Source of the DNA: Alphaproteobacteria bacterium
GTDB taxonomy: Bacteria > Pseudomonadota > Alphaproteobacteria > Rs-D84
Assembly: GCA_017471445.1 (NCBI GenBank)
Contig: JAFUTJ010000008.1
Location: 112,382 to 176,381 of the forward strand
Direction of reading: 5' to 3'
DNA length: 64,000 bases
Under the pieces are notes generated by a model, which saw only the letters and a list, made by a program, of their open reading frames with translations, searched no databases and was not told where the DNA came from. The number at the start of each line of letters is the position of its first letter. Positions within the stretch are counted from its first letter, which is position 1. Positions 10,385 to 50,288 of this stretch are shown in pieces. Made by a program: the position numbers and the translations under genes.

Positions 10385-10407
10385 AATATAACAATGGGGT
10401 GATACCG

Positions 10408-11049
10408 ATGAATATAAAATACTTAATTGCAATGATTACGTTTATGCCATGTGTTGCGTCGGCGGCAATTCCATACCGCGTACAACAGGTGCGAACCCCG
10501 CATGATACACGCGAAAGTGATACTGCGGCATTTGCAGATGCACATCGGTTCTATGTCGGCGGTATGTATGATTTTTCAATGTGGTTGTCTGATAATGATG
10601 GTACGACACATGCGGGCGGAAAAAACACATCTTCGTTTGATGCGGTCGTTGGGGTGCGTGCGCTTGACACATTCCGACTGGAACTTGACTATACCCACAT
10701 ACGCGCAAAATGGAATACGTTTTCATTGACTGGCAATGCCGCGTTTATAAACGCGATTGTTGATGCCCGCATTGACAGTTTGTATCGTATCTTTTACCGG
10801 CAACACATTGTGCCGTATGTTGGTGTGGGTGCGGGCCTGTCGTGGAATGATGCCGACGGCACCGAAATATCGCACGACATGTCGCCGGCGTTTGCGGCCC
10901 TGGGCGGCGTTGCGGTTGAACTGGGGGAATATTTTGCAATTGATTTTGGATATCGGTATTTATACATGGTATCGCCACGGTTTGATGTTGTATCTGATAT
11001 GAATCCCCGCGCGCATCAGTTTCGCGTTGGCGCACGTGTTAATTTCTGA
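10408..11049 (+). CDS. outer-membrane beta-barrel protein (OMP_b-brl family)
   Basis: Signal peptide ...CVASAA and C-terminal ...GARVNF. ATG at 10408 is preceded by GGGGTGA; the ORF track begins at an upstream GTG (10399). Confidence 0.65.
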   Translation: MNIKYLIAMITFMPCVASAAIPYRVQQVRTPHDTRESDTAAFADAHRFYVGGMYDFSMWLSDNDGTTHAGGKNTSSFDAVVGVRALDTFRLELDYTHIRAKWNTFSLTGNAAFINAIVDARIDSLYRIFYRQHIVPYVGVGAGLSWNDADGTEISHDMSPAFAALGGVAVELGEYFAIDFGYRYLYMVSPRFDVVSDMNPRAHQFRVGARVNF

Positions 11050-11987
11050 TGTGCAAAACATGTCCATTTTTTGGAATATGTGGCGGGTGTAAATATGATT
11101 TTACCGCCCCCGATTACCACGATAAAAAATTGGCCGAATTACGAAATATAAACATAACCGAACCGCCAATTTGGATTGCGCCCGGCACACGCCGACGCGC
11201 CGATTTTTGCTTTGGCGGCGGTCGCTTTGGTTTCTATAAAATGCACAGCAAGGACATAATTCCCATTGACGCATGTCCATTGTTATGCGATGAAATAAAC
11301 GCAATTATTCCGCATCTGCGTGCAATACCCTTTGATGGCGCGGGGTCATGTCTGGTAACGCTGTGCGATAATGGGGTGGACGTGGCAATAACATCAAATG
11401 TCACATACTTTTCCGCAGAAATGCGGGGGGCGGTGAATAATCTGCCGGTGATACGCGTATCATGGAATGGCAACGCCATACAGGCACGCGCAACGCCACG
11501 TGTTTCGTTTGGTACGCATTCCGTTGAATACCCAATTGGCGCATTTTTACAGCCGACAATCCCCGGTGCCGACGCTTTGCGTGACATGGTTGTTCGTGCA
11601 TCGCATGGCGCACAACATATCGCAGATTTATTTTGCGGATTGGGAAATTTTACATTCGCAACAAATGCCGATGGATTTGATATTGTTGGACCACATATTA
11701 GGCGCGATTTGTTCCGCCAACCGGTTACGCGCAAGATGTTAAATCAATATGATTGTGTAATAATGGACCCGCCACGTGCCGGTGCCGATGCCCAATGTCG
11801 TGAATTGGCGCATGCAAATGTACCACGGGTTATATACGTTTCATGCAACCCACAAACATTTATTCGCGACACAGAAATATTAACCCGCGCCGGATACCGA
11901 ACACAATCAATCACCCCGGTTGACCAATTCGTGGGTAGCCGCCATTGGGAAATATGTGCCGTATTTGGATTGCACATTGACGATTGA
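11049..11987 (+). CDS. RNA (uracil-5)-methyltransferase, TrmA/RlmD family (no TRAM domain)
   Basis: N-terminal Cys cluster CKTCPFFGICGGCKYD, then DPPRAGA and YVSCNPQTFIRD. The start overlaps the upstream stop (TGATG). Confidence 0.75.
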   Translation: MCKTCPFFGICGGCKYDFTAPDYHDKKLAELRNINITEPPIWIAPGTRRRADFCFGGGRFGFYKMHSKDIIPIDACPLLCDEINAIIPHLRAIPFDGAGSCLVTLCDNGVDVAITSNVTYFSAEMRGAVNNLPVIRVSWNGNAIQARATPRVSFGTHSVEYPIGAFLQPTIPGADALRDMVVRASHGAQHIADLFCGLGNFTFATNADGFDIVGPHIRRDLFRQPVTRKMLNQYDCVIMDPPRAGADAQCRELAHANVPRVIYVSCNPQTFIRDTEILTRAGYRTQSITPVDQFVGSRHWEICAVFGLHIDD

Positions 11988-24147: not shown

Positions 24148-25389
24148 ATGAATATTTTTCTGATGCTGTTGGCATTTTTATTCATGGGCACATATTACAT
24201 GTTATCTGGACCGTCATTACACCGGGAAACACATACGGTTGAATATGCGATAACCCAGGCCGATTTACGCGGCATTGCCGAATGCACTGCGGCGGTACAT
24301 AACGCATCAATCCGTGGTGGGGAATTTGATGACCAATGCGTTTCAGAAAATGGTATTACCAGCCTGTTTGTATGTCTAAACAAATCGCTGGATGTTACAG
24401 ATTGCAACGCATCAACCGGTCGCCGCCCGGTATTTAGTTACATTGTCACCGCGACATCACCGATACCAATGGACCAATATAACAACATGATGGAAATAAT
24501 GGACAAATACTATTCCGATGCGGGCACATTTGGGATATTTTCCGATGGCACAATTGCATCTGGGGGCACGGCCAGTCGCCGTATCGTCCCACGTGGTGTA
24601 ATTACAAAAATGGAATTAACCGCCGGTCAATTGGTATACATGACGCAATATGAAATTCCTGATGCAGATATTGAATTTACAGACCCAGAATCCGCCGATA
24701 TTTCATGCCCCGGCGGCACGATAAAGACATACCGCTTTGGCCGGTGGCAATGCGTGACCCATAATATGAAATCTGATTGTGGTGGCGATATGATATGGAA
24801 TTCGACTTTATATGAATGCGTCCCCGATGAATCGCGCAAGCCATTGTGTGCATCCAAACAAACGGCGGTTATTGTTGACGATGTATGGGAATGCATTGAC
24901 CCATTCCCAGAACAGAGCTGCGCCACCAACATGATATCGCGATTAAATTATGAAACACTGGAATGGGAATGTGTTCCTGACCCGGCGGCAACGGTTGATA
25001 CAAAAAAGTGCGCGGCGGCAACACGTGGTGTTGTATACGGTGGCATTGGGGCAACATTACGTGTTTCGGCGGCATCGTCATGCACCGATTGCGAACGTAT
25101 GATAATTGATTCTGAAACATGCGCATCTGCGTGCGTTCCCGACCCGGCTAAGATTAATTTACCCGCGTGCTATCCCGGAACAATTTCAGAATGCAGTGGC
25201 CCATCACGCGCATTTTATTTTGGTTTTACAAATGCATCCGCGGCGACAGGTGTGGATGCACTGAAAAATGCATATATACCAATTGATAAATCACATTCCC
25301 AGAATCGCCGCTTTAATTGCATGGACTGTGGTGCGGGCGAAATTGATTCTGCGCGTTCTGTTCCACCATACACCGCCATTTGTAAATAG
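24148..25389 (+). CDS. membrane-anchored Cys-rich repeat protein
   Basis: N-terminal TM helix. Five copies of a W/Y-x-C-V/I-x-D/P module: RWQCVTHN, LYECVPDE, VWECIDPF, EWECVPDP, ASACVPDP. Roughly 25-30 cysteines. Confidence 0.55.
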   Translation: MNIFLMLLAFLFMGTYYMLSGPSLHRETHTVEYAITQADLRGIAECTAAVHNASIRGGEFDDQCVSENGITSLFVCLNKSLDVTDCNASTGRRPVFSYIVTATSPIPMDQYNNMMEIMDKYYSDAGTFGIFSDGTIASGGTASRRIVPRGVITKMELTAGQLVYMTQYEIPDADIEFTDPESADISCPGGTIKTYRFGRWQCVTHNMKSDCGGDMIWNSTLYECVPDESRKPLCASKQTAVIVDDVWECIDPFPEQSCATNMISRLNYETLEWECVPDPAATVDTKKCAAATRGVVYGGIGATLRVSAASSCTDCERMIIDSETCASACVPDPAKINLPACYPGTISECSGPSRAFYFGFTNASAATGVDALKNAYIPIDKSHSQNRRFNCMDCGAGEIDSARSVPPYTAICK

Positions 25390-25392
25390 TGT

Positions 25393-26418
25393 TTATATCA
25401 GATTCTTTCGCAATTGTTGCACCAAATCTTGATTTGTTGTATGCGAAACATGTCGCATTATAAATTGTCGTAAATTATATGTGCATGCCCACTTTATCCA
25501 CCCGCGGGCGGCGGCAATGCGTCCAATGGCCAATGGTCGCGTATCATTACTTGTAATAATTCGTATAATACGTCGGCGAATTTTTAACGCGCCACGTCGG
25601 CGCAACATTATAAATCGTGGGAAATGCCGATACCCGATAAAAGATACGCCACACGCAACCCGCCCGACATTAAAGCGTGAAAAATCCATATTCAGTTTTT
25701 CACGCACAAATTCGCGAATGCGCCACGCCGCAACATGCAACATATGTGAATCATTACCATACAAACAGAAATCGTCACAATATCGAATATAGTCATGCCA
25801 TCGCAACACATGCTTAACAAACATATCCAGTTCATTCATATATACATTTCCCAACCATTGACTGGTCAGGTTTCCAATCGGCATATTTTTACCGGCCCCG
25901 CCCGACCGCACGATATTTTCCAGCAACGCGACAATCCGTACATCATTAATTTTATGACGAATTATTTGCATCAAAATTTCATGGTCAATTGACGGATAGA
26001 ATTTACGAATATCGCATTGCAAAACATACTTGTTCCGGCGCACAAATTGCATTGTTCGTTTTGATGCGGCGTGCAATCCGCGTCCTGAAATACACGCATA
26101 TGAATCACGAACAAACATACGTTGCCATATTGGCCCCAGAATGTTTATCAACGCATGTTGAACAATATGGTCGGGGTACAATGGTAATACGTATATCAGG
26201 CGTTCCTTGGGCTCAAACACACGGAACGTGCGATATTGCGACGTTGTATATTCCCCGCGCATTAACTGTTCGCGCAATCGTCGCAGGTTGCCATTGCGAT
26301 TGGCCATAAATGCACGCACGGCCCGGCGGGACTTTTTATTTTTAATTGCGCGCCGCGCCGCCAGGTCAAAATTTTCGGTTGAAATAAATTGATTCCAAAG
26401 ATTTTTGTATGTTTTCAT
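25393..26418 (-). CDS. reverse transcriptase, diversity-generating-retroelement (DGR) type
   Basis: EPKERLIY, DHIVQHALINIL, SYACISGRGLHAA, DIRKFYPSIDH, PIGNLTSQWLGNVY (DGR-diagnostic GxxxSQ), YIRYCDDF (YxDD box with Cys) and FIGYRHFP. Collinear along its whole length with Bordetella phage BPP-1 bRT as I recall it. Start moved to MKTYKNLWNQF (26418). Confidence 0.85.
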   Translation of the reverse strand: MKTYKNLWNQFISTENFDLAARRAIKNKKSRRAVRAFMANRNGNLRRLREQLMRGEYTTSQYRTFRVFEPKERLIYVLPLYPDHIVQHALINILGPIWQRMFVRDSYACISGRGLHAASKRTMQFVRRNKYVLQCDIRKFYPSIDHEILMQIIRHKINDVRIVALLENIVRSGGAGKNMPIGNLTSQWLGNVYMNELDMFVKHVLRWHDYIRYCDDFCLYGNDSHMLHVAAWRIREFVREKLNMDFSRFNVGRVACGVSFIGYRHFPRFIMLRRRGALKIRRRIIRIITSNDTRPLAIGRIAAARGWIKWACTYNLRQFIMRHVSHTTNQDLVQQLRKNLI

Positions 26419-26453
26419 TAATTGTTGGCTGTGGTATTTTGGGACAAATATTA

Positions 26454-26579
26454 CAATCACATGACCCACAATGTCCCACCAAAGACCAATGCAAATTGCA
26501 CCAACGTTTTTATTATCACGACACAAACAACCGCAGAAAATAACGTGGCACGATATTCTTGCTGTTTTTTGTTAAACAT
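26454..26579 (-). CDS. possible 41-aa hydrophobic micro-protein (speculative)
   Basis: ATG at 26579 gives MFNKKQQEYRATLFSAVVCVVIIKTLVQFALVFGGTLWVM. It has one TM-like helix and a weak RBS, and lies in the RT upstream spacer. Confidence 0.2.
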
Positions 26580-26585
26580 ACCACG

Positions 26586-27479
26586 TCACTTTTCCTGGGT
26601 CGCGATACGATTCTTCCAGAAATTGTTACGTTGGTTGTTTAATTTTGCAATTTCTGCCGTGACCCGTTCAATACGGTCGTTATATTCTGCAATATCAAAT
26701 TCTGCCTCTTTTATTTCTGCGGGCGATTCTGTCAACCGATTTACCATAATCCAATCTTCTATATTGCGGACGGATTGATGTAACCTTTCTTTCTGTTCTT
26801 CTTTTTGATGCAAATCAGATTCAATCGCATCGTATGCCATGGTATCAAATATAGAAATCTGGTATACTGCATTGTTGCGCGTTGGAACGGTTGTCCGGGG
26901 GCCATGACGCATATTTATATTTGCAATAATTTCGTCTGCACGCGCCCCGCCCGCACGTAAATCTGCCACATTGCATTCGGCAACAAAACGAAAGCAATCA
27001 CGGATATTTGCCAATGCATGATATCCCCGATTCATATGACCGTTATCTTGGATATATATTGTAACATACCCATTATTGTGCGTTCGTAACACATCATTCC
27101 ATTTACCGTTATTAAAACGGTTATTATTCATAAAATTAATTAAATAGTGTCGCAACTGGTTCAATTGCACATTATATTCACGTCCCCGACAAAATCGCAT
27201 AATATTGTTATGCCCATTAAACACGAACGGCGAACTTGTACCCCAACGCCCCGGGTTATATGACATTTGGGACCATAACGCGTTACAAATTGCATCACCA
27301 TCAATTTTACCAATATAAATCTCATCAAAACGGATGGGGTTATCATACCTTTCGCCAAGTTTCAGACGTGTCACCGACGCACTTAAATCCGCCGCTGAAA
27401 ATTCACCAACATATTTGGTTTGCGTATTGTAACGAATAACATCTTCGTAACAGGAATATTTTGATTTTTTGCGTGCCAT
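26586..27479 (-). CDS. hypothetical protein with Asn-rich globular N-domain and coiled-coil C-terminus
   Basis: 297-aa ORF directly upstream of the RT on the same strand. The C-terminal ~85 aa are predicted helical (EEQKERLHQSVRNIEDW...IERVTAEIAKLNN). No recognised family. Confidence 0.5.
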   Translation of the reverse strand: MARKKSKYSCYEDVIRYNTQTKYVGEFSAADLSASVTRLKLGERYDNPIRFDEIYIGKIDGDAICNALWSQMSYNPGRWGTSSPFVFNGHNNIMRFCRGREYNVQLNQLRHYLINFMNNNRFNNGKWNDVLRTHNNGYVTIYIQDNGHMNRGYHALANIRDCFRFVAECNVADLRAGGARADEIIANINMRHGPRTTVPTRNNAVYQISIFDTMAYDAIESDLHQKEEQKERLHQSVRNIEDWIMVNRLTESPAEIKEAEFDIAEYNDRIERVTAEIAKLNNQRNNFWKNRIATQEK

Positions 27480-27556: not shown

Positions 27557-29149
27557 TCATATGTCGTTACGCGTAAATTTTCCAGAATCCAGCATATCGC
27601 GCACCATAAAATGACGAATCTTTTTTGCCGATGTCATTGGTAATTCATCGGTTGTGATGGCAAAGTGACCGACCCACTTGTACGGCGCAATTTTCAGGTT
27701 TGATGCCCGCACCAACAATGAAACCGTATCAATTGTGGTACCCGGCTTTACCTGAAACACCGCGAACGGAACAATTTTACCATTTATCGTATACTCAAAC
27801 ACTGCGGCCGCCAATATTTCCGGGTTTTGCAAATACAAGTCTTCCAATTCATCGGGGTAAACGTTTTTACCACTGTCCAAAACAATAACCTGTTTCTGAC
27901 GTCCACGCACAATCAGACGCCCACGCCGGTCGCGCATGCCCACATCGCCGGTGCGAAACCATCCATCTGGGGTAAACGCATCGCGATTCGCCGCGTCGTT
28001 ATCGATATAGCCCGGCATTAACATATTCCCCCGAAACCATATTTCACCAATACCATCGCGATTGGGATTATTAATCTTAATCTCGTTCCCACGCAGTGGC
28101 CCTGCATAATGTGTGCCGCGACCATCGGGATTTGGCACCGCCCAATTAAACAATGCCGGCCCCGTTGTTTCGGTTAAACCATAGCAATCACCCACCGAAA
28201 AACCCATGCGTTCGTAAAACTTGCGAATCGATGGCTTTAACGTTGCGCCCGCCGATACCAGCACGCGCGTATTTCCACCAAATGCATCATGCACCGGCCG
28301 CGTTACGCGCCGCACAACACACCCCAGCCCACACGCACGCAATATATGCCGCATTGATATAATGCAACGCATTAACGTCCATGCATGCTTGTCCCGTGCC
28401 GAATCGACAATTTTTTTATAAAACACTTCCCAAATACGGGGAACCGCGGGAATAACCTCTGGCTTGTACTGTTTCCAGTCTTTGATAAATTCTTGCGGTT
28501 TTAATACAGGTTGCAGCAATAATTTACACTGTAAACACACAGGAACGATTATATTTATCACCACACCATATATATGATACAGTGGTAAAAAACCATAAAA
28601 TGTAAAGCCCGGACGCACAACATGCGCATAAAAATACGCCCCGTTTACCAACCCCAACAGGTTGCCATGCGTGATACCAACAACTTTTGGATTTCCGGTG
28701 GACCCAGATGTGAACGATAACTGGGCAATATCGGCCGGACCAACATCGGCGGCAACAAAATCTGATTCGTCTGTGTCATCAATGTTTTCGATATCAAACA
28801 TCTGAAAACCCGCATCATCGAATCTGTGTACGGCATCTGCCAAAACCAATTTACAATTTGTGCGGCGAATCATATTCACGTGTTCCACACGCGCCAACCC
28901 AGTATCCAACATTAAACATTTTGCACCGATTGCCGTAATTGCATAATACGACCGAACAAAATCCGGCGTATTACCCGACAATATTCCAACCGTATCACCA
29001 CGGCGAATACCAAAACGCTGGGCCAATAATACCGCACGACGCTTTACCTTGGTCAATAAATCTGAATATGTTTCATTCTGGCGCACAAAGAATATGTTGT
29101 CGCGATTGCGCGCACAAACATCCGCCAACATTTCATAAATATTTTTCAT
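27557..29149 (-). CDS. AMP-dependent synthetase/ligase (long-chain fatty-acid-CoA ligase-like)
   Basis: AMP-binding signature SFTSGSTGNPKVV, then YGLTET and GWFRTGD. Confidence 0.85.
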   Translation of the reverse strand: MKNIYEMLADVCARNRDNIFFVRQNETYSDLLTKVKRRAVLLAQRFGIRRGDTVGILSGNTPDFVRSYYAITAIGAKCLMLDTGLARVEHVNMIRRTNCKLVLADAVHRFDDAGFQMFDIENIDDTDESDFVAADVGPADIAQLSFTSGSTGNPKVVGITHGNLLGLVNGAYFYAHVVRPGFTFYGFLPLYHIYGVVINIIVPVCLQCKLLLQPVLKPQEFIKDWKQYKPEVIPAVPRIWEVFYKKIVDSARDKHAWTLMRCIISMRHILRACGLGCVVRRVTRPVHDAFGGNTRVLVSAGATLKPSIRKFYERMGFSVGDCYGLTETTGPALFNWAVPNPDGRGTHYAGPLRGNEIKINNPNRDGIGEIWFRGNMLMPGYIDNDAANRDAFTPDGWFRTGDVGMRDRRGRLIVRGRQKQVIVLDSGKNVYPDELEDLYLQNPEILAAAVFEYTINGKIVPFAVFQVKPGTTIDTVSLLVRASNLKIAPYKWVGHFAITTDELPMTSAKKIRHFMVRDMLDSGKFTRNDI

Positions 29150-29552: not shown

Positions 29553-31613
29553 ATGTCTGATGTACAAAACGAAGTAAAGATTCAAATCCTGCCGACACTG
29601 ACCACAAAGTTGGTTGCCGTGCAAAAGCGGTCTGGCGAAACCGTGCCATTTGATGCGAAAAAGATTTTTGACGCAATTAAAAAGGCCGTTGCGGTTACAA
29701 CTGAAATGACCGACCAACAGATTGCAAATGCAACGCAGAGTGTGTTGGACAAACTGGACGAAAAATTCGCCGAAAAAACACCAACGGTTGAAGATATTCA
29801 AGAAACAGTTATTCAGACATTAATGGACACCCATGCCTATAAGACGGCCGAGGCATATATTGTTTACCGTCATAAACGCAACGAAATTCGTCACGCAATG
29901 GTTGATGCCGTTGATATTATCGAAGGCTATGTCGGTGGTTCCAATTGGCGAATCAAAGAAAATGCAAATATCGGTTATTCAATTGGTGGGTTAATTCTGC
30001 GCACGTCGGAACGCGTAACGGCGGAATATTGGTTGAACCTGTACCCACGCGAAGTAGCCGACGCGCACAAATCCGCCGCAATTCATATTCATGACCTGGG
30101 GTGGTTAACCGGGTACTGTGCGGGCTGGTCACTGCGCGAGTTATTATACGAGGGGTTCAACGGTGTGCCGGGTTACCTGCAATGCGAACCGGCGAAACAC
30201 ATGGCAACGGCAATTTCGCACATGGTAAATTTCTTGGGCACGTTGCAAAACGAATTTGCCGGTGCCCAGGCGTTTTCATCGGTTGATACGTATCTGGCAC
30301 CATATGTCAGAATCGACAAACTGTCGTATGCAGACGTTAAAAACGCGATGCAAACACTGGTATTTAACTGTGCGGTGCCGTGCCGTTGGGGAACACAAAC
30401 ACCGTTTATTAACTTTACATTTGATTGGACATGTCCAAAAGACCTGGCAAATCAGCGGCCATTTGTCGGCAAGAAACAGGTTGACTTTACCTATGGCGAT
30501 TTACAGGCGGAAATGGACACCATTAACAAAGCATTTATAGAAGTTATGACCGAAGGCGATGCCCAGGGTCGTCCGTTTACATTCCCAATTCCGACATATA
30601 ATATCACGCCTGATTTTCCGTGGGATCATCCGAATGTAAAGCCATTGTTTGACCTGGCGGCAAAATATGGTATTCCGAATTTCCAGAATTTCTTGAATTC
30701 TGACCTGAACCCGACCGATGTGCGTTCAATGTGTTGTCGGTTACGGCTGGACGTGCGTGAATTGTTAAAGCGCGGCGGCGGTCTGTTTGGCTCAGCGGAA
30801 AAGACCGGTTCAATTGGCGTTGTAACAATCAACCTGTCGCGGTTGGGATATACACACCGTGGCGACCGTGACGGCCTGTTCCGCGAATTACAGCGTTTAT
30901 TAAACTTGGGGCGCGATTCGCTGGAAATCAAGCGCAAGATTATTTCCAAGAACATGGAACGTGGACTGTATCCGTTTACCAAACGCTATCTGGGCAACTG
31001 GAATCACCACTTTTCAACTATCGGCGTAAATGGCGCGAACGAAATGGTTATGAACTTTACAAACGGCACCGAAAGCATTGCAACGCCGTTTGGGAAAAAA
31101 CTGGTTTTGGACGTTATGGACTTTATTCGCGAAAACCTGGCCAATTTCCAGGAAGAAACCGGCAATCTGTATAATTTAGAGGCAACACCGGCCGAAGGCT
31201 GCTCTTATCGATTTGCCAAGACCGATAAAAAGAATTTCCCGGACATCATCACGGCCGGCACACCTGATGCACCGTATTACACAAATTCAACCCAGTTACC
31301 GGTGAACTATACCGATGATCCATTTGTTGCACTGGAACACCAAGAAGAATTACAGCGTAAATATACCGGTGGCACAATGTTGCACCTATATATGGGTGAA
31401 CCGGTGTCATCTGGGGCGGCCGCGCAAAAAATTGTTCGCACGATATTCGAAAACTATCGCATACCGTACATGACATTAACCCCGACATTTTCAATATGTC
31501 CAAAACATGGGTATTTGGCGGGTGCGTACGATTTCTGTCCGAAATGCGACGCGGAAATTGTGGCCAACCAAGACACATGCAAATGCGATTGCGAACGGAT
31601 GGACGATAAATAA
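29553..31613 (+). CDS. nrdD: anaerobic ribonucleoside-triphosphate reductase NrdD, large polypeptide lacking the glycyl-radical loop
   Basis: N-terminal ATP-cone (VQKRSGETVPFDAKKI), a class III RNR core, and a C-terminal zinc-ribbon-like CPKHG...CPKCD. The ORF stops before the expected RxxGY glycyl-radical motif. Confidence 0.85.
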   Translation: MSDVQNEVKIQILPTLTTKLVAVQKRSGETVPFDAKKIFDAIKKAVAVTTEMTDQQIANATQSVLDKLDEKFAEKTPTVEDIQETVIQTLMDTHAYKTAEAYIVYRHKRNEIRHAMVDAVDIIEGYVGGSNWRIKENANIGYSIGGLILRTSERVTAEYWLNLYPREVADAHKSAAIHIHDLGWLTGYCAGWSLRELLYEGFNGVPGYLQCEPAKHMATAISHMVNFLGTLQNEFAGAQAFSSVDTYLAPYVRIDKLSYADVKNAMQTLVFNCAVPCRWGTQTPFINFTFDWTCPKDLANQRPFVGKKQVDFTYGDLQAEMDTINKAFIEVMTEGDAQGRPFTFPIPTYNITPDFPWDHPNVKPLFDLAAKYGIPNFQNFLNSDLNPTDVRSMCCRLRLDVRELLKRGGGLFGSAEKTGSIGVVTINLSRLGYTHRGDRDGLFRELQRLLNLGRDSLEIKRKIISKNMERGLYPFTKRYLGNWNHHFSTIGVNGANEMVMNFTNGTESIATPFGKKLVLDVMDFIRENLANFQEETGNLYNLEATPAEGCSYRFAKTDKKNFPDIITAGTPDAPYYTNSTQLPVNYTDDPFVALEHQEELQRKYTGGTMLHLYMGEPVSSGAAAQKIVRTIFENYRIPYMTLTPTFSICPKHGYLAGAYDFCPKCDAEIVANQDTCKCDCERMDDK

Positions 31614-31657
31614 CAATACAAATCAACAAAAACTAACAAAAAAAAGGAGAAAGAAAA

Positions 31658-31837
31658 ATGACAAACACAAACAGAACACCATGCGAAAAATTTTCACGTT
31701 CAATGGGATTCATTCGCCCGGTCAGCAATTTTAACGTTGGCAAATATTCTGAATTCTGTGAACGCAAGACATTTACAGAAACAAACAGTTTGACCACCGG
31801 CGCACGCCACTGTGAATTGATGAAGAAAGCGGCGTAA
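31658..31837 (+). CDS. 59-aa ORF encoding the NrdD glycyl-radical loop
   Basis: RBS AGGAGA 8 nt upstream of the ATG at 31658. Translation is MTNTNRTPCEKFSRSMGFIRPVSNFNVGKYSEFCERKTF.... It matches the NrdD C-terminal pattern R-x-x-G-[YF]-[LI]...N-x-GK-x-x-E...R. It is below the 60-aa cut-off of the ORF track and in a different frame from nrdD. Confidence 0.6.
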   Translation: MTNTNRTPCEKFSRSMGFIRPVSNFNVGKYSEFCERKTFTETNSLTTGARHCELMKKAA

Positions 31838-31843
31838 TCCGTC

Positions 31844-32548
31844 ATGCGCGAAATACAAATCGGGGGATTGGTTTCATTCACCACCATTGACTATCCCGGG
31901 AAATTGGCCGCTGTGCTGTTCTTGGTTGGGTGTCCGTTGCGGTGTGCGTATTGTTCCAACCCCCATTTAATTACCCCCGCCCCCGGCGAATATGACCCAG
32001 AATTGGTCTTTGATTGGCTAAAATCACGCATTGGCCGGCTAGAGGCGGTTGTATTTTCCGGGGGCGAGGCATTAATGCACGGTGATGCATTAATTGAATA
32101 CATGCGGCGCGTACGTGAACTGGGGTTTAATATTGGCCTGCACACAAACGGTTTTTATCCAAACGTTTTACGACGCGCGGAATCTGTTATTGACTGGGTA
32201 GGTTTGGATTACAAGGCAACACGTGCGCGTTATCATGAATTGGTTGGTAACGACGTTGCGTATGATTTAATGTCTGGGTCACTGGATTTCCTGGTTGAAT
32301 CTGGCATGGATTTTGAGGTTCGTATTACATGCGACCCACGGTATATAACAAAATCGGATTTAATGGAAATAATTACCGATTTACATAACCGCGGTGTAAA
32401 AACCGTCGCAATTCAGAAATATATCCCCCATCACGAAGACGGCCAAACACCAACAACCGCGGCCGACCGGGACCAATTTTTTAATGATGATGAATTACGT
32501 AATAAAATAACCCGATTAATACCATCTGTTATTTGGCGTAATTCGTAA
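31844..32548 (+). CDS. nrdG: anaerobic ribonucleotide reductase activating protein (radical SAM)
   Basis: GCPLRCAYCSNP radical-SAM cluster motif, located directly downstream of nrdD. Confidence 0.85.
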   Translation: MREIQIGGLVSFTTIDYPGKLAAVLFLVGCPLRCAYCSNPHLITPAPGEYDPELVFDWLKSRIGRLEAVVFSGGEALMHGDALIEYMRRVRELGFNIGLHTNGFYPNVLRRAESVIDWVGLDYKATRARYHELVGNDVAYDLMSGSLDFLVESGMDFEVRITCDPRYITKSDLMEIITDLHNRGVKTVAIQKYIPHHEDGQTPTTAADRDQFFNDDELRNKITRLIPSVIWRNS

Positions 32549-32570: not shown

Positions 32571-33881
32571 ATGTCGGCATGTAAAATAATTTTACAAACA
32601 AATTCACACGCGCACGTGGTCAAATCGATTCCGGGCGATTGCGTGTGTGTTGTATCGTTGGGCGGCGGTGGCATTACAGATTTAAGTTTCGGAATGCGCA
32701 TGTCCCAGATTGTCAATCGCGAATTATTGAATTCAATGCCCGATATACCAAATTATGTCGTGGTTTATGACCAAGGTATGTCTAGCCCAACCCGAATTCA
32801 GATGCAATATGAAACACATCGGCAAAATATTGTTACAAATCCGCCAACAGACCAACCGGTAAATTTATACATAAACGAACAAAACATTAATTGGGTATTT
32901 CGGCATCGGGTTGCGCCATTGATTACGGCGGGCCATCAAAAATTAAATTTTATTTTTGACGGCGATAAAACACGTATGAAATCGGAAATAACAAAACGAA
33001 TTTCATCTATCACGGCCAAACCACAACAGTATATAAAAAACATTTTTCCATTCGATTTGTATTTTTCAGAACCGTATATGGATGATTTGTTTAACGCGAT
33101 TCTGTTACCGCGAATAACAGATGAAAATGGCAATCGCATACCAACCGATGTTGCCGCACGACGCATTCGTAAAATTAATTTTCGGGCACATTGCTTTGGT
33201 GCATATGTCGCACTGGGGATGGAAAAACGTATGCAAAACAAAATGCGCGAATTGGGGTATTGTGAATCTGAAATGAAACACATACAATCCCAGATGTTGG
33301 TTGTGGCATTAAATCCGGCATGTCCATTTGGTGTGTCAAAATCACAATTTTTCGGGTTCATGTCTGCGTATGATAAACAATTACAACGCCCGGCAAATTG
33401 GGTTACTGAATATATTACAAATCGCCGCAATTCAGAATTAAACGATAATAAAAAATGGGACATGAAACGCGGTTTCTTGTCGGGAAAATATGGCAATATA
33501 TTTTTTGTAAAGAAACGTTTTGCATTGGTCGGCCATGGGACTAACCCGCCAATTGGCAATGACGAACACAATAATTCGCATTATTTATACGACGGTATGA
33601 CCGATGATGGCAGGTTTATAATGCAATTATCACGTAACATAATAATAAACGGCATAAAAAATTCGTTAACCATGGATTGTGACGGCGACGCCGCGCCACT
33701 GGGGCCGATTGAAGAACTGATTTTAGATGGTGAAAATGATACAAAAATTAAACGTGAATTTACCAAAATGCAGAAAAATGGCAACAGATTTATGACCGAC
33801 GTTTATAATTTTGCAACCCAACAAATTCGCGAAAATAAAATCGCACAACCGGCAAAACAAAATTCGCCAAATATACGATAA
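32571..33881 (+). CDS. hypothetical protein (possible Cys-nucleophile alpha/beta-hydrolase-like)
   Basis: No clear family. VVSLGGGG and RAHCFGAYVA loosely resemble the oxyanion-hole and nucleophile-elbow motifs of dienelactone-hydrolase-like enzymes. This is weak. Confidence 0.35.
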   Translation: MSACKIILQTNSHAHVVKSIPGDCVCVVSLGGGGITDLSFGMRMSQIVNRELLNSMPDIPNYVVVYDQGMSSPTRIQMQYETHRQNIVTNPPTDQPVNLYINEQNINWVFRHRVAPLITAGHQKLNFIFDGDKTRMKSEITKRISSITAKPQQYIKNIFPFDLYFSEPYMDDLFNAILLPRITDENGNRIPTDVAARRIRKINFRAHCFGAYVALGMEKRMQNKMRELGYCESEMKHIQSQMLVVALNPACPFGVSKSQFFGFMSAYDKQLQRPANWVTEYITNRRNSELNDNKKWDMKRGFLSGKYGNIFFVKKRFALVGHGTNPPIGNDEHNNSHYLYDGMTDDGRFIMQLSRNIIINGIKNSLTMDCDGDAAPLGPIEELILDGENDTKIKREFTKMQKNGNRFMTDVYNFATQQIRENKIAQPAKQNSPNIR

Positions 33882-33969: not shown

Positions 33970-35664
33970 TTACTGCATATCTGGTATCGTCAACATATCA
34001 TTATATTGCGACAAGTAACGTTTACCTGTCATACAATAAACCTTTTGCCGGGAATCTTGGTATTCACGAAGCGCGGTAACCCATCGTTCTTCAATATCAT
34101 TCACAGCACCCTGGTACCCAATAAACGCGCCAATCGTACCACCAGCACCGGCACCAATTGCCGTTGATTTCATACGGGCACGATTACTGAAATCAATTAA
34201 CGCGCCATCTTCGGCATCAACAGTCATCGGATAAAAATCGTCCAAAGTATATTCTGTTTCCTGGGAATCTGTTGATGTCTGATCTTTTTTTGTGTTTTTT
34301 AACGAAATTGCCATACCTTTTGCATCACGACCAACAATGTCGGACGGTTTAAATTTAGCCTTTAATTCACTGTCCCATTGCGATGCCTTGACCCCAAAGA
34401 AACTATCGGAAACGCCGGTTATCATCGCTGCGATATGTTCTGTTGGGATTTGGGCGGACGAAATCTCAACATATTCGCCGGTTGATACCGACGACATTTC
34501 TTTTTCATTCAATTCATAACGATATTCAGTGCTAATACTGGCGATAAAATCTTTGTTACCTGATTTCAATTTAGAAAATTCTTTATCTTGGTTTGCATTA
34601 ATTACAACGTGTATCAAAGATATCGGTGCGCATTCTGTAAATTTATTGTTTGTTGTATTATATTTACATTCAACAATTGATTCATCAGATATATTTATAA
34701 AAGCCTTTTTGTTTTCTGACGGGTTGTATTGTGCCCCCTTTATCAACGCACCCCATAAACATTTAGTTTGTGCACCTTTTAGATCCTGGCAATTTTCAAT
34801 TCGCAAAACACTGTCGCCAATGCCGGACATGTTACCAATAACACCACCGGCAACGGCATTAACCCCCGCAGATAAAATCGTGTCACCGGCAACTTTGCCA
34901 CTGTATATGCTGGTTGCCATTAATGCCGCACCACCCAATCCACCAATTAAAGTACTTTGCATTTTACCTTTACTGGTTCCAAACAGGCCGTCTTTCCCGG
35001 GGTCATTTTTGCCGACAACGTTTCCGCCAACGGCGGCAACCACCGACGCGGCCGCAATTTTCAGCCCCGCGTTTTGTTTCTGTTCGGCGTTCATAACGCG
35101 TTCAACATCATCCTTGGTCGGTGCACTGTCTGCCGGAAATATTATTTCAGATGCCATTGGTAAATACGAACCATCGGGAAATTCCGATATATTGCATTTT
35201 ATTGTGTCACCTGCGGCAATTTTTACACGTGCAACATTTGCATCCGTTCCGCCGGGCCCCATTTGATAACCGTACATATTCACCACGGCAACACATGTTG
35301 CCGCACCACCGGCACCACGCCCCGCGGTTGGAACCGCCCATTCAAATTCACCGTCGGGATAAATACGCGAACATTTTTCCAAATTTTCACGCGCCGCGTC
35401 GTTTTCACCGTTAATAATTTGTTCGGCCAATTGCGCATTTGCAACCGTAACCGGCAATTCAGCCGCCGCCGATACATTATTGGCATTTTGTGCATTTGCA
35501 TACGCCCGTTGTTGCGCAACCGCATTATAAGATTCGGCATAACTGCGCGATAGATTTCCCACACGCACCGCCGCATCACACGACCAAGGGTACAATGAAC
35601 AGGAAACAAGGCACAGGGTTGCCAACGAACAGCGACCTGAAAACAACAAACAGTTTTTTTGCAT
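33970..35664 (-). CDS. exported protein with glycine-zipper segments
   Basis: Start moved to MQKNCLLF (ATG at 35664, RBS GAGGAGAG). Signal-like N-terminus. Gly-zipper stretches LIGGLGGAALMATSIYSG, GVNAVAGGVIGNMSGIG and AIGAGAGGTIGAFIGYQG. Confidence 0.5.
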   Translation of the reverse strand: MQKNCLLFSGRCSLATLCLVSCSLYPWSCDAAVRVGNLSRSYAESYNAVAQQRAYANAQNANNVSAAAELPVTVANAQLAEQIINGENDAARENLEKCSRIYPDGEFEWAVPTAGRGAGGAATCVAVVNMYGYQMGPGGTDANVARVKIAAGDTIKCNISEFPDGSYLPMASEIIFPADSAPTKDDVERVMNAEQKQNAGLKIAAASVVAAVGGNVVGKNDPGKDGLFGTSKGKMQSTLIGGLGGAALMATSIYSGKVAGDTILSAGVNAVAGGVIGNMSGIGDSVLRIENCQDLKGAQTKCLWGALIKGAQYNPSENKKAFINISDESIVECKYNTTNNKFTECAPISLIHVVINANQDKEFSKLKSGNKDFIASISTEYRYELNEKEMSSVSTGEYVEISSAQIPTEHIAAMITGVSDSFFGVKASQWDSELKAKFKPSDIVGRDAKGMAISLKNTKKDQTSTDSQETEYTLDDFYPMTVDAEDGALIDFSNRARMKSTAIGAGAGGTIGAFIGYQGAVNDIEERWVTALREYQDSRQKVYCMTGKRYLSQYNDMLTIPDMQ

Positions 35665-35716
35665 CTCTCCTCTTTTCCCCCATCTGTGCTGGACATATAC
35701 GCCAATGTCACGTGGT

Positions 35717-36865
35717 TTAGAATTGCAACCGCAGACGCACACCAACATCAACACTGCTTAAACGGCCGCTTTCGTACCAATTGGTATAGTGAAACACACT
35801 ATCATACGGTGCCTCGTATTCGCCATCGCTGTAACCCGACCCATCTGACAGCCATTCTGTCTGGGAAACAACAATACTGCCCGATGTCTTTACCTTGCCC
35901 ATGTTGGCATACCGCACAAAGAAATCAGCACGCAGGCCACTGCCCAAATCGGTTGATACGCCACCTTCGACCATAAAGGCCAAATTCTTTTCCGTGCCGC
36001 CATTGTGATACGCGTATACGTCCGATATACCGGTTAATTTTCCGGCCTCGGTTTCTTGGGGTAATGCAACAGAATAGAAATTTTTATCAAGGACAACATA
36101 GTCAGCAATTGTATTCAACGCCAGCCCGGCACCAACACCCACATACGGCCGCAGTGACCCGCCCGCAATATACCCAGTATACGAATCAATATTGTAATAC
36201 AAATTCAACATAACCGTATTTGACGTAATTGCGCCGCCATCAACACTGGCCTTAACAGTTGCCGCCCCCGTATCATCGGCGGTTAAAACATCGCTGGCAT
36301 AACTTAGCCCGGAATAACGCAAATACGAAAAGTCAATACGAATATCGTTATTAATTGCCGCACCAACAGAAACCTGTAACGGGATTACCGTGTCTGAATT
36401 ATATCCCGATGGCGCAAACGAACCCGGAACGTACGTTCCACCTTCTTCGCCGCCGTAACCTTGGGACATGTCACCCATAATACTGGCCGCGTATGCCGCC
36501 GACAATCCGATATACAGCCCACTATCCGCCAGGCGTTCATAATCCGCCGGTTGATAATATTGCCGTCCGGCGGTTGTCGCCGCCGACCCAACACGCGGCA
36601 ATGCGCCGGTTATACGTCCCGGCTGGGCCGCAACCGTTGAATTTGCCACAACAACACCATTTGACGGTGTCGGCAGGTATACAACCTGGGAATTAGGATT
36701 AGCGGCCGCGACATTTACAGAATTTCCAGGCACAACAACAACCGGATTGACCGCGTTTGCCACATTAGCATTATACGCCGGATTCACCGGATAAACCGCA
36801 CCCGCGCCACCATGGACGCCCAACAAAACGCCAATAAAAACGGCGGAAATTCGGGTATTATTCAT
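35717..36865 (-). CDS. outer-membrane beta-barrel protein with N/V/P-rich N-terminal extension
   Basis: Signal peptide, low-complexity VNPAYNANVANAVNPVVVVPGNSVNV..., then a beta-barrel pattern ending VGVRLRLQF. Confidence 0.6.
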   Translation of the reverse strand: MNNTRISAVFIGVLLGVHGGAGAVYPVNPAYNANVANAVNPVVVVPGNSVNVAAANPNSQVVYLPTPSNGVVVANSTVAAQPGRITGALPRVGSAATTAGRQYYQPADYERLADSGLYIGLSAAYAASIMGDMSQGYGGEEGGTYVPGSFAPSGYNSDTVIPLQVSVGAAINNDIRIDFSYLRYSGLSYASDVLTADDTGAATVKASVDGGAITSNTVMLNLYYNIDSYTGYIAGGSLRPYVGVGAGLALNTIADYVVLDKNFYSVALPQETEAGKLTGISDVYAYHNGGTEKNLAFMVEGGVSTDLGSGLRADFFVRYANMGKVKTSGSIVVSQTEWLSDGSGYSDGEYEAPYDSVFHYTNWYESGRLSSVDVGVRLRLQF

Positions 36866-41990: not shown

Positions 41991-43226
41991 CTAAATCATA
42001 TTTTCGGCGGCCGCCATTTGCACAATCGGGGCCAAGTATTTTAATTCGGCATCACTGTGCAATGATATATGTTCAATTACCCCGCGCCGTGACAGTATTT
42101 GCAGCCCCCGTGTACACAACGGGCGTATAAATTCATGTAACAATCGCCCATACGTTGCCCCCAGAATGCGCATCATATCACTGTTACGGGCCAATATTTC
42201 CGTTGCGGTCATTTCTTTATCGGTCAACAATCCCAACCGGTCGGCCAACATTGCATGGCGAATGCGTTCCCGCAAATCGTTCAATATTATTTGCGAAACG
42301 TCAAAATCGGCACCACTGGACAATGGGGTCAGGCCCGAACTGCCCACGGCCTTTGGAATAATTGCACCAGGTGTCAGATTAATATTCGCCAGGTTTATTA
42401 CACCATCATCGTCCGCCATCCATATACCAGAAACGGCAATGGTTGCATTTTTTAGTACCAATTCAACAACCTTGTTCGCGGTTTTAATATCTGGCAATGT
42501 GCGCAATACCGGGCCGCGCCCGTACAATTCGCCCGACATTAATGACCAACGGAATATCAGGTACGGGTTTGTGTCAAACGTGCCACGTGCAACGATATTA
42601 TTTTCCATATTACCGCCAACATCCAACCATGCGGTAAAGTCACAATCGTCGCACAGGCATTGCACCATGCGCAATGGCATGTCTGGGTCGTGACGCATTT
42701 TGTCGGCAATGTCGGCGGGCGGTGTCCATGTTGGGTATTTTTCTGTGACATCGCGGGCGGTCATTGTTGTGGTATGAAATATTGCATTTGGCAACACGGC
42801 AATATCGGTAATGGGTATTGCGATAAAGTTAAACGCACTGTCTGCACCAATTGGATTTTCGGCCATGAACATACACGCCGTACCGTAAACAACCAAATCC
42901 ATATAGCATTGATGGACCGTTGTATAAAAATTAGAATCGTTCAGGTGCGCCCGCAATGCCGCCGCCGCGGGTTCTGGGTCGGGGGCAGAATCGCTTTCCT
43001 GTACCAGATTAATCCACAAACTTTCCGGCGGGGTCAGCAATGAATACATTGCCGCGGCCAGGTTATCCGCCGCATCGGCCGCCGTTGCGTCAAACAATGT
43101 TGCCGCATCTGAATCCGACGATGGTATGGTATACCGCCGCGCATCGTCCCAACGGTGAATCCACGGCGCACGCATATCAATTGCACGGCGATACATGCGT
43201 TGTAATTTTTCAATATCATATTGCAT
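41991..43226 (-). CDS. podovirus-type portal (head-to-tail connector) protein
   Basis: LQRMYRRAIDMRAPWIHRWDDARRYTIPSS...AADNLAAAMYSLLTPP parallels T7 gp8 (YERLKNDRAPYETRAQNCAQYTIPS...GLNNLASKLMLALFP). Start moved to MQYDIEKL (43226, RBS AAAGGA). Confidence 0.7.
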   Translation of the reverse strand: MQYDIEKLQRMYRRAIDMRAPWIHRWDDARRYTIPSSDSDAATLFDATAADAADNLAAAMYSLLTPPESLWINLVQESDSAPDPEPAAAALRAHLNDSNFYTTVHQCYMDLVVYGTACMFMAENPIGADSAFNFIAIPITDIAVLPNAIFHTTTMTARDVTEKYPTWTPPADIADKMRHDPDMPLRMVQCLCDDCDFTAWLDVGGNMENNIVARGTFDTNPYLIFRWSLMSGELYGRGPVLRTLPDIKTANKVVELVLKNATIAVSGIWMADDDGVINLANINLTPGAIIPKAVGSSGLTPLSSGADFDVSQIILNDLRERIRHAMLADRLGLLTDKEMTATEILARNSDMMRILGATYGRLLHEFIRPLCTRGLQILSRRGVIEHISLHSDAELKYLAPIVQMAAAENMI

Positions 43227-43260
43227 AACAAAATCCTTTTGGTTTATTTTTAAGTGTTTG

Positions 43261-44106
43261 TTACAGGTTAAATTCTGTATTCGCATAAATTGTCGTGGGC
43301 GTGTTGCATGTTGCACGTACCGGCATCGGGCGGCACGAAATTGCACCGGCAACCGCGTCCAGGCCGTCATCATGCGTTGCACCATTTGGTGTCCACCCAA
43401 TCATTTCGGGCAACAATTGCGTTTTTGTAATCCGTGTATGCGCATGCATGCGTCCAGACCCCAACAGTGGTTCAATCGCATCGCAAATGCGAATTTCTTT
43501 GTTCGTGTGGTTTGACACCGGGTCAATAACAACACCGATGCCGCGGGCGCGGGCAATACTGCGCATTATTTCAGGTAATGTGCCGCCAATACCGTTTGTT
43601 TCAATTGCGATGCGGCGCATTTGATACCGCGACATTAAATTCAGTATTGTTCCGCATTGCCACGTGATTGGCGAAGGGATGTTTTCTGGTGGTGACATAT
43701 ACATTACGTCGTGAATAAATACATGGCGCGATATATCGTCGCGGTACAAGATGACGCAAACACTGCCATCATGACCACGCCCGGCGGACGATGGGTCCCA
43801 ATAAACACATGCCGCATTAATTGGCCAATTGCCAATTCGCGCATGGTCTGAATCAAAATCATCGTCATAAAACTTAATTTTTTCCGGGTCCAGACGAACG
43901 CCATCCATCGGCACAAAATTTAACATCATTTGCGATGAAAAATGTCGTTCACCAACAATCGTGCGAATTTCATTTATCTTGTCGGTCCCAAAAACATCGG
44001 GCCATGTGGGCGTGCCGGCGGCATCCATAATCGGTATTCGCAACACACGATACCCTCGCAAAAAAGGAATTGAAAAACCAATTTTTTCATATACTATATC
44101 AGACAT
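43261..44106 (-). CDS. terminase large subunit, C-terminal nuclease half (split gene)
   Basis: WPDVFGTDKINEIR...FSSQMML, then the RNase-H-like nuclease signatures CVYWDPSSAGRGHDGS, IAIETNGIGG and THDDGLDAVAGA. No ATPase motifs. Its ATG shares the tetranucleotide CATG with the divergent dnaB start. Confidence 0.7.
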   Translation of the reverse strand: MSDIVYEKIGFSIPFLRGYRVLRIPIMDAAGTPTWPDVFGTDKINEIRTIVGERHFSSQMMLNFVPMDGVRLDPEKIKFYDDDFDSDHARIGNWPINAACVYWDPSSAGRGHDGSVCVILYRDDISRHVFIHDVMYMSPPENIPSPITWQCGTILNLMSRYQMRRIAIETNGIGGTLPEIMRSIARARGIGVVIDPVSNHTNKEIRICDAIEPLLGSGRMHAHTRITKTQLLPEMIGWTPNGATHDDGLDAVAGAISCRPMPVRATCNTPTTIYANTEFNL

Positions 44107-48569: not shown

Positions 48570-50288
48570 TTAAATTATATAGTGGCCGTATGCCGTTACC
48601 GATAACACATTTATTGGCATGGCATCGGTACCACTGATTTCCCAGATTGGCGTAAATGCGTCATATCGTGTCCCCAACATTCCAATTGATGCATCGCCGG
48701 AAAAACCGGTGGCGTTATCCGAATATATAGAATTTGGCAAAGTAACGCGCATGCCATTTAATATCAGTGACTTGGTATCGCGCACACGCACAGACAGCCG
48801 GCGTATGCGCACATGGCGCGCGTTATGTCCACCACCACGCAGTGGCATCGCCGATGCACAATATGAAAAACTGTATGCATTCATATCATTCATTGCGGTT
48901 TCATCAAAGCGTTCAATGGTATACACACCATCGCGACATACACATACAAATGTATTATGACCAATCGTGCATACAGATTGAAAATCACCATGTGTTGTAT
49001 AGTGTGACCATGCGGCAATTCCCATTTGTGCATTGTAATTCATTACCGCCATATCACCCGCGGCCATTACAACATACATGCGGCGCAACGTGTCATTATA
49101 TGTAATGTCAATTGGGTCGTGCATTAAATGTTTCGCCATTGAACATAAATCGGTTGCACGGTAATTCTGGGCCAAATCATCCAACACCAATTGCCGAATG
49201 TCGCATCCGGTACGTGATATAAACACAGTTGCACCCGATACACATTGTGGGGCCAGGTATTTGTCAGTCAAACTGCCCACCGATGTGTGTTGTTTGATAT
49301 CAATTGATGATGGGGTTAATGGTTTACTGGTAATCGCCCATTCACCAGAATCGGTCAATATTTGTAAATTATCACTGGCCACCACGGTGCATATATGTTG
49401 TGGCGATTGCGACAACAATGTTACAAAAATTGCCTCGTCATCCAGACCGGTACCGACATCAAAGTTATTATGACGGCCAACCTGGGACATCCATACGCCA
49501 CATTTGTGCGACCGCGAACCACCGAATATCAGGCGGTCTTGATGAAATGTAATACTGGTTGGCCAACCACGCGCATTTGAAAACACCGATTCACGCCAAT
49601 CGGCAACCGGGCCGGCGGGAATTGAATATGCACCGTTTACAAACGCAACCAATTGCGATTGGTTTATATATTCGCGAATTGTCCATTGTTGATTCATTAC
49701 GATAAATGTACTGCCGACTATATCGGGTGTCCAACATGCGCGATTTGCCGTAAATGTTGCAAAATTATTTCCATATTCATGCGTTGAAATTGTAATCGTT
49801 ACATCCGACGTATCGTCAAAGCGCATAAATGGCATAAACATGTCTTGATTATTATCAGAATGCGCAAATTCAAATCCGGTTAATGTAAACGTGCCACCGT
49901 TGCCGCGTAATACACGCGGGCGATAATCTGGGTGAACAAATATCATGGTATCAAAACGTTGGGCATATTGTATGCATGGAATATCATCTGTACCCCATGG
50001 CGATAATATGTCGCATACGCGCGTGCCATCGGGCGTATATATTGCAATATGTTCTGGCATAATTGCCAATATATAATTTTCATTAACACCAACACAGAAT
50101 GGCACCAGGCGCGCGGCATCATAAATATTACAAACATGCGCCAATCCAGAACGGCGAATAATACCACCACCGTCGGTTACATCCATATTTTCCAACCGCG
50201 ATAAACCATGTATATTATCGTTTGTATAAAATTCTGGGGAAACCGCACCATGCGCAAACGAAGAATACGTTTTTACAAAATTTGTCAT
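48570..50288 (-). CDS. tail tubular protein B (T7 gp12/nozzle)-like
   Basis: ARGWPTSITFHQDRLIFGGS parallels T7 gp12 NPWPSF...FFFRNRLGFLSG, and AAWSHYTTHG parallels QSWSHWDFG. Located after the gp11-like gene. Confidence 0.55.
   Translation of the reverse strand: MTNFVKTYSSFAHGAVSPEFYTNDNIHGLSRLENMDVTDGGGIIRRSGLAHVCNIYDAARLVPFCVGVNENYILAIMPEHIAIYTPDGTRVCDILSPWGTDDIPCIQYAQRFDTMIFVHPDYRPRVLRGNGGTFTLTGFEFAHSDNNQDMFMPFMRFDDTSDVTITISTHEYGNNFATFTANRACWTPDIVGSTFIVMNQQWTIREYINQSQLVAFVNGAYSIPAGPVADWRESVFSNARGWPTSITFHQDRLIFGGSRSHKCGVWMSQVGRHNNFDVGTGLDDEAIFVTLLSQSPQHICTVVASDNLQILTDSGEWAITSKPLTPSSIDIKQHTSVGSLTDKYLAPQCVSGATVFISRTGCDIRQLVLDDLAQNYRATDLCSMAKHLMHDPIDITYNDTLRRMYVVMAAGDMAVMNYNAQMGIAAWSHYTTHGDFQSVCTIGHNTFVCVCRDGVYTIERFDETAMNDMNAYSFSYCASAMPLRGGGHNARHVRIRRLSVRVRDTKSLILNGMRVTLPNSIYSDNATGFSGDASIGMLGTRYDAFTPIWEISGTDAMPINVLSVTAYGHYII

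Follow-up and report, generated by a model that had tools for sequence, protein, structure and literature searches.

A separate small gene encodes the NrdD-type glycyl-radical loop beside a loop-less anaerobic ribonucleotide reductase gene: a probable two-polypeptide class III enzyme

The DNA analyzed here is a 64,000-nucleotide stretch (hereafter the window) from an Alphaproteobacteria bacterium (GenBank assembly GCA_017471445.1, contig JAFUTJ010000008.1, positions 112,382 to 176,381 of the forward strand). Three tightly packed genes lie on its plus strand: nrdD, for the large subunit of a class III (anaerobic) ribonucleotide reductase, a 59-codon open reading frame (ORF), and nrdG, for the activase (Table 1), which scores 180 bits against the TIGR02495 model (cut-off 131). 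The nrdD product, whose C-terminal end is ...SICPKHGYLAGAYDFCPKCDAEIVANQDTCKCDCERMDDK followed by the stop codon, lacks a glycyl-radical loop. A loop of the NrdD type is found in the product of the small ORF, which consists of MTNTNRTPCEKFSRSMGFIRPVSNFNVGKYSEFCERKTF and then a 19-residue tail, and its Gly17 lies within an RxxG[FY] motif. The original prediction, made from the DNA letters, had described this arrangement: a 686-residue nrdD that ends just after its zinc ribbon without the radical motif, a radical-loop ORF 44 nucleotides downstream in another frame and behind a good ribosome-binding site, and nrdG directly after it. All of these elements were recovered.

Table 1. Features of the split nrdD operon, with positions in the window
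Feature	Position	Strand	Basis
nrdD large subunit, 686 residues: ATP-cone, catalytic barrel and zinc ribbon, without glycyl-radical loop	29553..31613	+	Pfam, NCBIfam
ATP-cone, residues 23-111, allosteric activity domain	29619..29885	+	PF03477, E 5.8e-23
Finger loop S392-M-C-C-R396, double-cysteine MCCR type, expected radical acceptor	30726..30740	+	Alignment to T. maritima SCCRL
Zinc ribbon C649-x2-H652-x9-C662-x2-C665, last conserved element of the large subunit	31497..31547	+	Alignment to T. maritima zinc site
Spacer, 44 nucleotides, A-rich, with Shine-Dalgarno (SD) sequence AAGGAGA at 31644-31650, 8 nucleotides before the ATG	31614..31657	+	
Small subunit, 59 residues, NrdD-type glycyl-radical loop as its own polypeptide, frame differs from nrdD	31658..31837	+	Pfam NRDD 530-562/562
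Radical motif R14-S-M-G17-F18; G17 at 31706-31708 is the predicted radical site	31697..31711	+	Invariant residues
C-terminal extension of 19 residues, TETNSLTTGARHCELMKKAA, ending -AA, past the end of the Pfam, TIGR02487 and PRK08270 NrdD profiles	31778..31834	+	
nrdG activase, radical SAM (S-adenosylmethionine), 234 residues, starts 6 nucleotides after the small ORF stop	31844..32548	+	TIGR02495 NrdG2, E 3e-53

The homology to NrdD passes from the first ORF to the second at a clean boundary. In the Pfam scan, positions 1-529 of the 562-position NRDD profile align with residues 136-667 of the nrdD product (E 1e-170), and the remaining positions, 530-562, align with residues 6-39 of the small protein (E 3.7e-4). 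The 581-position TIGR02487 profile is divided in the same way, with 1-549 on the large ORF and 550-580 on the small one. Together, the two ORFs cover the NrdD profile with zero gap and zero overlap; the profile alignment that the original prediction had proposed (TIGR02487, PF13597) thus places the break at 549/550 and 529/530. The large ORF also scores 1028 bits against NCBIfam PRK08270 (cut-off 548; profile positions 4-664 of 684). The Actinomyces oris NrdD, which is a fused form, can be laid across both ORFs, its residues 48-610 aligning to the large one and 609-644 to the small one.

The large ORF has the barrel, the finger-loop cysteine motif, the zinc ribbon and the adjacent NrdG that identify a class III NrdD; what it does not have is the RxxG[FY] loop on the same chain, as it stops at profile position 529 of 562. 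Its SMCCRL sequence (residues 392-397) aligns with SCCRL of Thermotoga maritima and recurs in each of the seven relatives compared, whether split or fused; the MCCR lineage of class III reductases has been defined in PMC9669993. The ribbon residues C649, H652, C662 and C665 are invariant in the 81 loci described below and would form a metal site. The zinc site of the T. maritima NrdD is CxxxHx6CxxC, and its ribbon follows the last barrel strand and precedes the radical loop (PMC4493059). Since the ribbon is the last element of the large ORF and the loop is in the small one, the break falls exactly between the two. The original prediction had allowed that the 686-residue protein might hold a radical glycine that had been overlooked, and no candidate radical loop is present there.

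When the small protein was scanned against Pfam at E-values of up to 1, only NRDD and one chance match were returned, and no Gly_radical domain of the pyruvate formate-lyase (PFL) type; neither NCBIfam nor Pfam has a model dedicated to the small protein. Searches of the PDB sequences with the small protein, and with a profile built from 47 of its homologues, returned no NrdD chain, the profile being too narrow. Two ideas about additional metal ligands were dropped. A CKCDC cluster in the tail of the window NrdD is absent in its relatives and so carries no weight as evidence. The conserved Cys9 of the small protein was considered as a zinc ligand supplied in trans, but four ligands are already present in the large subunit, and the fused form also has this cysteine.

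A scan of species-representative genomes returned 314 relatives, and the best 80 were analyzed, which with the window gives 81 loci. These 80 are Candidatus Enterousia or other gut Alphaproteobacteria, and their NrdD proteins are 85-89% identical to that of the window. In all 80 the order is the same: the nrdD stop is followed by a spacer, an SD sequence of the GGAGG type, the ATG of a small ORF 57-64 codons long and, last, nrdG. In all 81 loci a GGAG-type SD sequence lies no more than 18 nucleotides before the ATG of the small ORF, and nrdG starts 2-10 nucleotides past its end. The spacers measure 21-58 nucleotides and are 57% A. The survey of fused and split versions among relatives, which had also been suggested at the outset, therefore found the split form in all 80, and it extends to distant Proteobacteria as well (see below).

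The small gene is under strong purifying selection. Its nucleotide diversity in the 81 sequences is 0.16 at the first codon position, 0.09 at the second and 0.44 at the third, and its ratio of nonsynonymous to synonymous substitution rates (dN/dS) is 0.08 at a dS of about 1.5, with values of 0.067 for the loop and 0.094 for the tail. Enterousia genomes are smaller than 1 Mb (PMC12306168), and the retention of the operon in every Enterousia species examined despite this small size argues for a function. The residues G48, R50, H51, L54, K56 and A59 of the tail are invariant in 47 sequences, and 99 of the 108 Enterousia-type small proteins end in -AA. This ending could be a docking or a degradation signal. 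Among 296 other small proteins, 25 end in -AA, where about five would be expected, and 55 end in -AAE; the large subunits of Cupriavidus necator and C. metallidurans end in -LAA.

These data bear on two simpler explanations for the split. The first is that nrdD is a recent pseudogene, or that a sequencing or assembly error has introduced a frameshift; the original prediction had itself named a freshly broken gene, or an error in the A-rich spacer, as the alternative. The only feature that speaks for this is the raw look of a truncated gene. Three independent gut-metagenome runs assemble positions 31300-32000 identically, at 26- to 101-fold depth and with no indel, and the split is common to 80 species genomes in which the small gene evolves at the dN/dS given above. 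Moreover, stop codons lie between nrdD and the small ORF in all three frames, so that no single change would fuse them. This explanation is refuted.

The second explanation is recoding, in which stop readthrough, frameshifting or ribosomal bypass would join the two ORFs into a normal full-length NrdD. The short, A-rich spacer would suit such an event, and in 31 of the 81 loci the small ORF is in frame with nrdD. However, the other two frames are about equally common (+1 in 27 loci and +2 in 23), the in-frame cases have one to three stops between the ORFs, and the spacer lengths vary; in lineages outside the Enterousia set the ORFs overlap or are separated by 142 nucleotides. The SD sequence and ATG of the small ORF are retained in every one of the 81 loci, and the small gene also occurs by itself in phages. 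Taken together, these observations make recoding very unlikely.

The split form is also widespread outside this group. At 78% identity or more, the small protein of the window has 217 homologues, every one of them stand-alone and 57-92 residues long. The profile built from 47 homologues gave 2393 matches in 1.84 billion representative proteins, and the best 150 are all 47-118 residues long; a profile built from divergent members matched at least 7998 clusters, the best 120 of which are all short. On inspection of the sequences, 137 of 148 matches to the first profile and 114 of 116 to the second are stand-alone, in that they start with methionine and have no zinc ribbon upstream. Seven residues (R14, G17, N26, G28, K29, E32 and R36) are invariant in 35 divergent small proteins, and seven others (Cys9, E10, M16, R20, P21, F39 and E41) are nearly so. 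Fused fragments, in a search that used one as the query and whose matches were all 200 residues or shorter, come mainly from Actinobacteria. The fused A. oris protein shares 69% identity with the large subunit of C. necator, and the window protein is only 56-58% identical to either, the value against A. oris being 57%; by similarity, then, the fused form nests among the split ones. This A. oris NrdD (locus L096, 1177-3156) has no N-terminal ATP-cone, and its match to PRK08270 begins at profile position 95.

The order large nrdD, small gene, nrdG was seen in three metagenomic lineages and in cultured bacteria, namely C. necator H16 (on megaplasmid pHG1), C. metallidurans, Ralstonia solanacearum, Azospira sp. 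I09, Bradyrhizobium barranii, Paracoccus denitrificans and Sulfuricurvum kujiense. In C. necator the TIGR02487 profile is split in the same way as in the window. On bacterial chromosomes and plasmids, the small gene lies between nrdD and nrdG in every locus examined, except for a prophage-borne copy in Turicimonas muris. In R. solanacearum (locus L091, 3531-3704) the small ORF overlaps the start of nrdG, and the high G+C content produces a spurious open frame of 564 residues through it. In one split lineage (locus L082, 5799-6725) a thioredoxin-reductase-like gene (Pyr_redox_2) follows nrdG, a neighbour that fits a thioredoxin-dependent reductase of the MCCR type.

Annotation pipelines label the small ORF, and it is not discussed in the literature searched. 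In C. necator H16, Azospira, B. barranii and S. kujiense, RefSeq calls it 'nrdD, anaerobic ribonucleoside-triphosphate reductase' and gives the large coding sequence the name 'ribonucleoside triphosphate reductase'; in GenBank, many R. solanacearum records lack an annotation for the small ORF or describe it as hypothetical. The denitrifying (anaerobic) growth of C. necator H16 needs NrdDG, as reported in PMC2864759, and RefSeq shows that the H16 locus is split, its small gene (H16_RS32675) having 66 codons. Therefore, a split locus is functional in at least one organism. The same report lists the CH34 genes as Rmet_5137 and Rmet_5139, a numbering that leaves one gene between them.

Viruses carry the small gene as well. 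A scan of viral contigs found 429 stretches that encode the small protein, and in each of the best 80 loci, which were examined, it is a stand-alone ORF of 48-125 residues. Neither nrdD nor nrdG is present within 6 kb of the small gene in 74 of these 80 contigs. The loci behind these observations are L085 (5001-5204), L086 (2039-2242), L088 (5001-5189) and L100-L178 (match near 6001). One adjoins terminase, portal and Mu-F genes, and another is the T. muris copy mentioned above, which is in a prophage lysis region of the complete genome of strain YL45. Such orphans would make sense only if the module pairs in trans with a large subunit encoded elsewhere.

Some loci display different patterns. 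In the viral contigs L169 and L170 the small gene (6001-6144) lies upstream of a large, loop-less nrdD (approximately 9924-11261), at a distance of about 3.8 kb and not directly after it. In locus L087 the called genes are interrupted by numerous in-frame stops when read with the standard bacterial code (one gene of 835 residues has 41), which suggests a phage with a reassigned stop codon, and one 'viral' contig from IMG/VR (L099) holds an Enterousia nrdD operon. Insertion of a homing endonuclease was considered as the cause of the split and rejected: HNH genes are beside two of the phage copies, and there are none in the bacterial operons.

We think it probable that the locus encodes a two-polypeptide class III reductase together with its activase and that the radical module acts in trans. 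The original prediction that the radical glycine is on an autonomous mini-subunit has thus gained support from the start signals in all 81 loci, from the indifference to frame, from the dN/dS of 0.08, from the distant Proteobacteria and from the phage orphans. Because the large subunit has no radical loop, the small protein would be obligatory and not a spare.

A further rival is that the small protein is real and is not the radical carrier here. It might instead regulate, act as a decoy for NrdG or donate a radical to some other enzyme, and the large protein might work in another way or not be a reductase at all. In favour of this are the extra conserved tail of the small protein, which ends in -AA, and the phage orphans, which exist apart from nrdD. 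However, the large subunit retains every other NrdD element and offers no candidate for a radical loop, the small protein has as its invariant residues those of the C-terminal loop of NrdD, and the position of its gene between nrdD and nrdG is constant, the T. muris prophage excepted. On balance, we regard this rival as unlikely.

Several points weigh against a two-polypeptide reductase. The H16 genetics cover nrdD and nrdG and not the small gene, Enterousia may have another reductase and the phage contigs might have an nrdD farther than 6 kb away. The small protein alone was modelled by AlphaFold2 with a predicted local distance difference test (pLDDT) score of 59 and a predicted template modelling (pTM) score of 0.33, with a weak helix over the tail; this low-confidence fold is weak evidence, compatible with a protein that folds only on binding.

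If the two-polypeptide reading is correct, the enzyme might work as follows. Regulation and substrate binding would be tasks of the large subunit, which would also contribute the cysteine for the attack on the substrate. The small protein, presumably translated independently from its own ribosome-binding site, would supply the loop that dips into the barrel in the fused enzymes. NrdG would convert its Gly17 to a glycyl radical, either while the peptide is free or after it has docked, and the two subunits would assemble non-covalently. The docked loop would then hand the radical to the finger-loop cysteine, and from there to the substrate, as in an ordinary NrdD.

Such an arrangement might have two advantages. 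In glycyl radical enzymes, the radical glycine is where oxygen cleaves the chain (PMC13450708), and a cheap radical peptide could be replaced after cleavage with a loss of only 59 residues. In addition, a free peptide might be more accessible to NrdG than a loop that is buried in the barrel. For activase access to the buried glycine of the fused T. maritima enzyme, a large conformational change is needed (PMC4493059), and with a free peptide this change would no longer be required. These considerations lead to a further possibility, which we offer only tentatively and consider somewhat less than even: the NrdD-type peptide would be a free, exchangeable radical cartridge that NrdG activates off the enzyme, that plugs into the loop-less large subunit and that is discarded and replaced after oxygen cleavage, and the phage copies would keep up or boost the anaerobic supply of deoxyribonucleoside triphosphates in the host.

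No terminator-like site was found between nrdD, the small ORF and nrdG. Directly after nrdG there is an ORF of 436 residues (32571-33881, plus strand) without a Pfam match, and further long ORFs without a Pfam match are at 33970-35754, 35717-36865, 48570-50288, 24148-25389 and 26586-27479. A reverse-transcriptase ORF (RVT_1; 25393-26526, minus strand) and an AMP-dependent ligase (27557-29149, minus strand) are upstream of nrdD. In a distant relative (L089/L090) an AMP-ligase is also upstream of the split operon, and L090 has an RVT_1/GIIM gene upstream as well. The ORF at 41991-43400 (minus strand) matches a phage head-to-tail connector protein (E 2e-79), which indicates phage-derived DNA about 10 kb from the operon.

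According to a review of June 2026, no glycyl radical enzymes except the formate lyases have had spare-part proteins identified, and whether others exist has yet to be established (PMC13450708); Andorfer 2021 makes the same statement. Family-wide analyses of the reductases describe the split class II enzymes (NrdJa/NrdJb) and treat the class III radical domain as C-terminal (PMC9669993), and a survey of phage reductases reports split nrdD genes that result from introns or fragmentation, and not the arrangement seen here (PMC3653736). Our literature search for a split, spare-part or autonomous NrdD radical module found nothing relevant, though a brief earlier mention is possible.

If the two-polypeptide reading is true, the radical of a large branch of class III reductases resides on a peptide of its own, about 60 residues long, and 'NrdD' expressed alone from bacteria with the split form should be a dead enzyme. 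This branch includes culturable and genetically tractable organisms, such as C. necator H16, R. solanacearum, P. denitrificans and Bradyrhizobium, in which the question of spare parts would be directly testable. If the cartridge idea also holds, the small protein would be the first autonomous glycyl-radical cofactor outside PFL, and the reductase would be the first example of a glycyl radical enzyme that always receives its radical domain in trans. Phages would gain a new small auxiliary gene. There is also an annotation gap to be closed, as the gene is unannotated or hypothetical in many GenBank records and appears as a second 'nrdD' in RefSeq.

In conclusion, the system can be compared with several that are already known. 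The canonical NrdD/NrdG systems (phage T4, Escherichia coli and T. maritima 4COI; PRK08270, TIGR02487) share with it the ATP-cone, the barrel, the MCCR finger loop, the Cys/His zinc ribbon, the RxxG[FY] radical loop and the adjacent radical-SAM activase. They differ in that their chain itself has the radical loop as its C-terminus, whereas here the loop is a separate product with a 19-residue extra tail.

The original prediction had likened the small protein to GrcA (YfiD) of E. coli, which, like Y06I of phage T4, is an autonomous cofactor for PFL. This analogy is valid in part. Both are small stand-alone radical-loop proteins of which phage versions exist, and GrcA is activated by the activase of its parent enzyme and works in trans, as the window peptide probably does, judging from its place in the operon and from the phage orphans. 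The analogy fails in that GrcA is of the PFL type (PF01228; IPR011140) and the window protein matches only the NrdD profile, and in that GrcA replaces the damaged domain of an enzyme that owns one, whereas the large subunit here never has one.

The split class II reductase NrdJa/NrdJb of Pseudomonas aeruginosa and its relatives likewise has a C-terminal functional module on a separate polypeptide beside the barrel gene; however, NrdJb has IscU-like and zinc-finger domains for re-reduction of the active site and does not contain the radical site. The phage reductases with genes in pieces, such as nrdA-a/nrdA-b of Aeh1, which are split by mobE, and nrdD of phiAS4, which is in three parts, also consist of adjacent ORFs without an intron or intein (PMC3653736). 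Those cases are isolated, recent and either linked to homing endonucleases or of unknown cause, whereas the NrdD split described here is old, widespread, under selection and fixed at a domain boundary. Finally, the alpha and beta subunits of class I reductases resemble the predicted arrangement in that a stable radical resides on a separate small subunit and is passed to the catalytic one, but the proteins and the chemistry are unrelated, as the class I enzymes use a tyrosyl radical and a metal cofactor in a ferritin-like protein.

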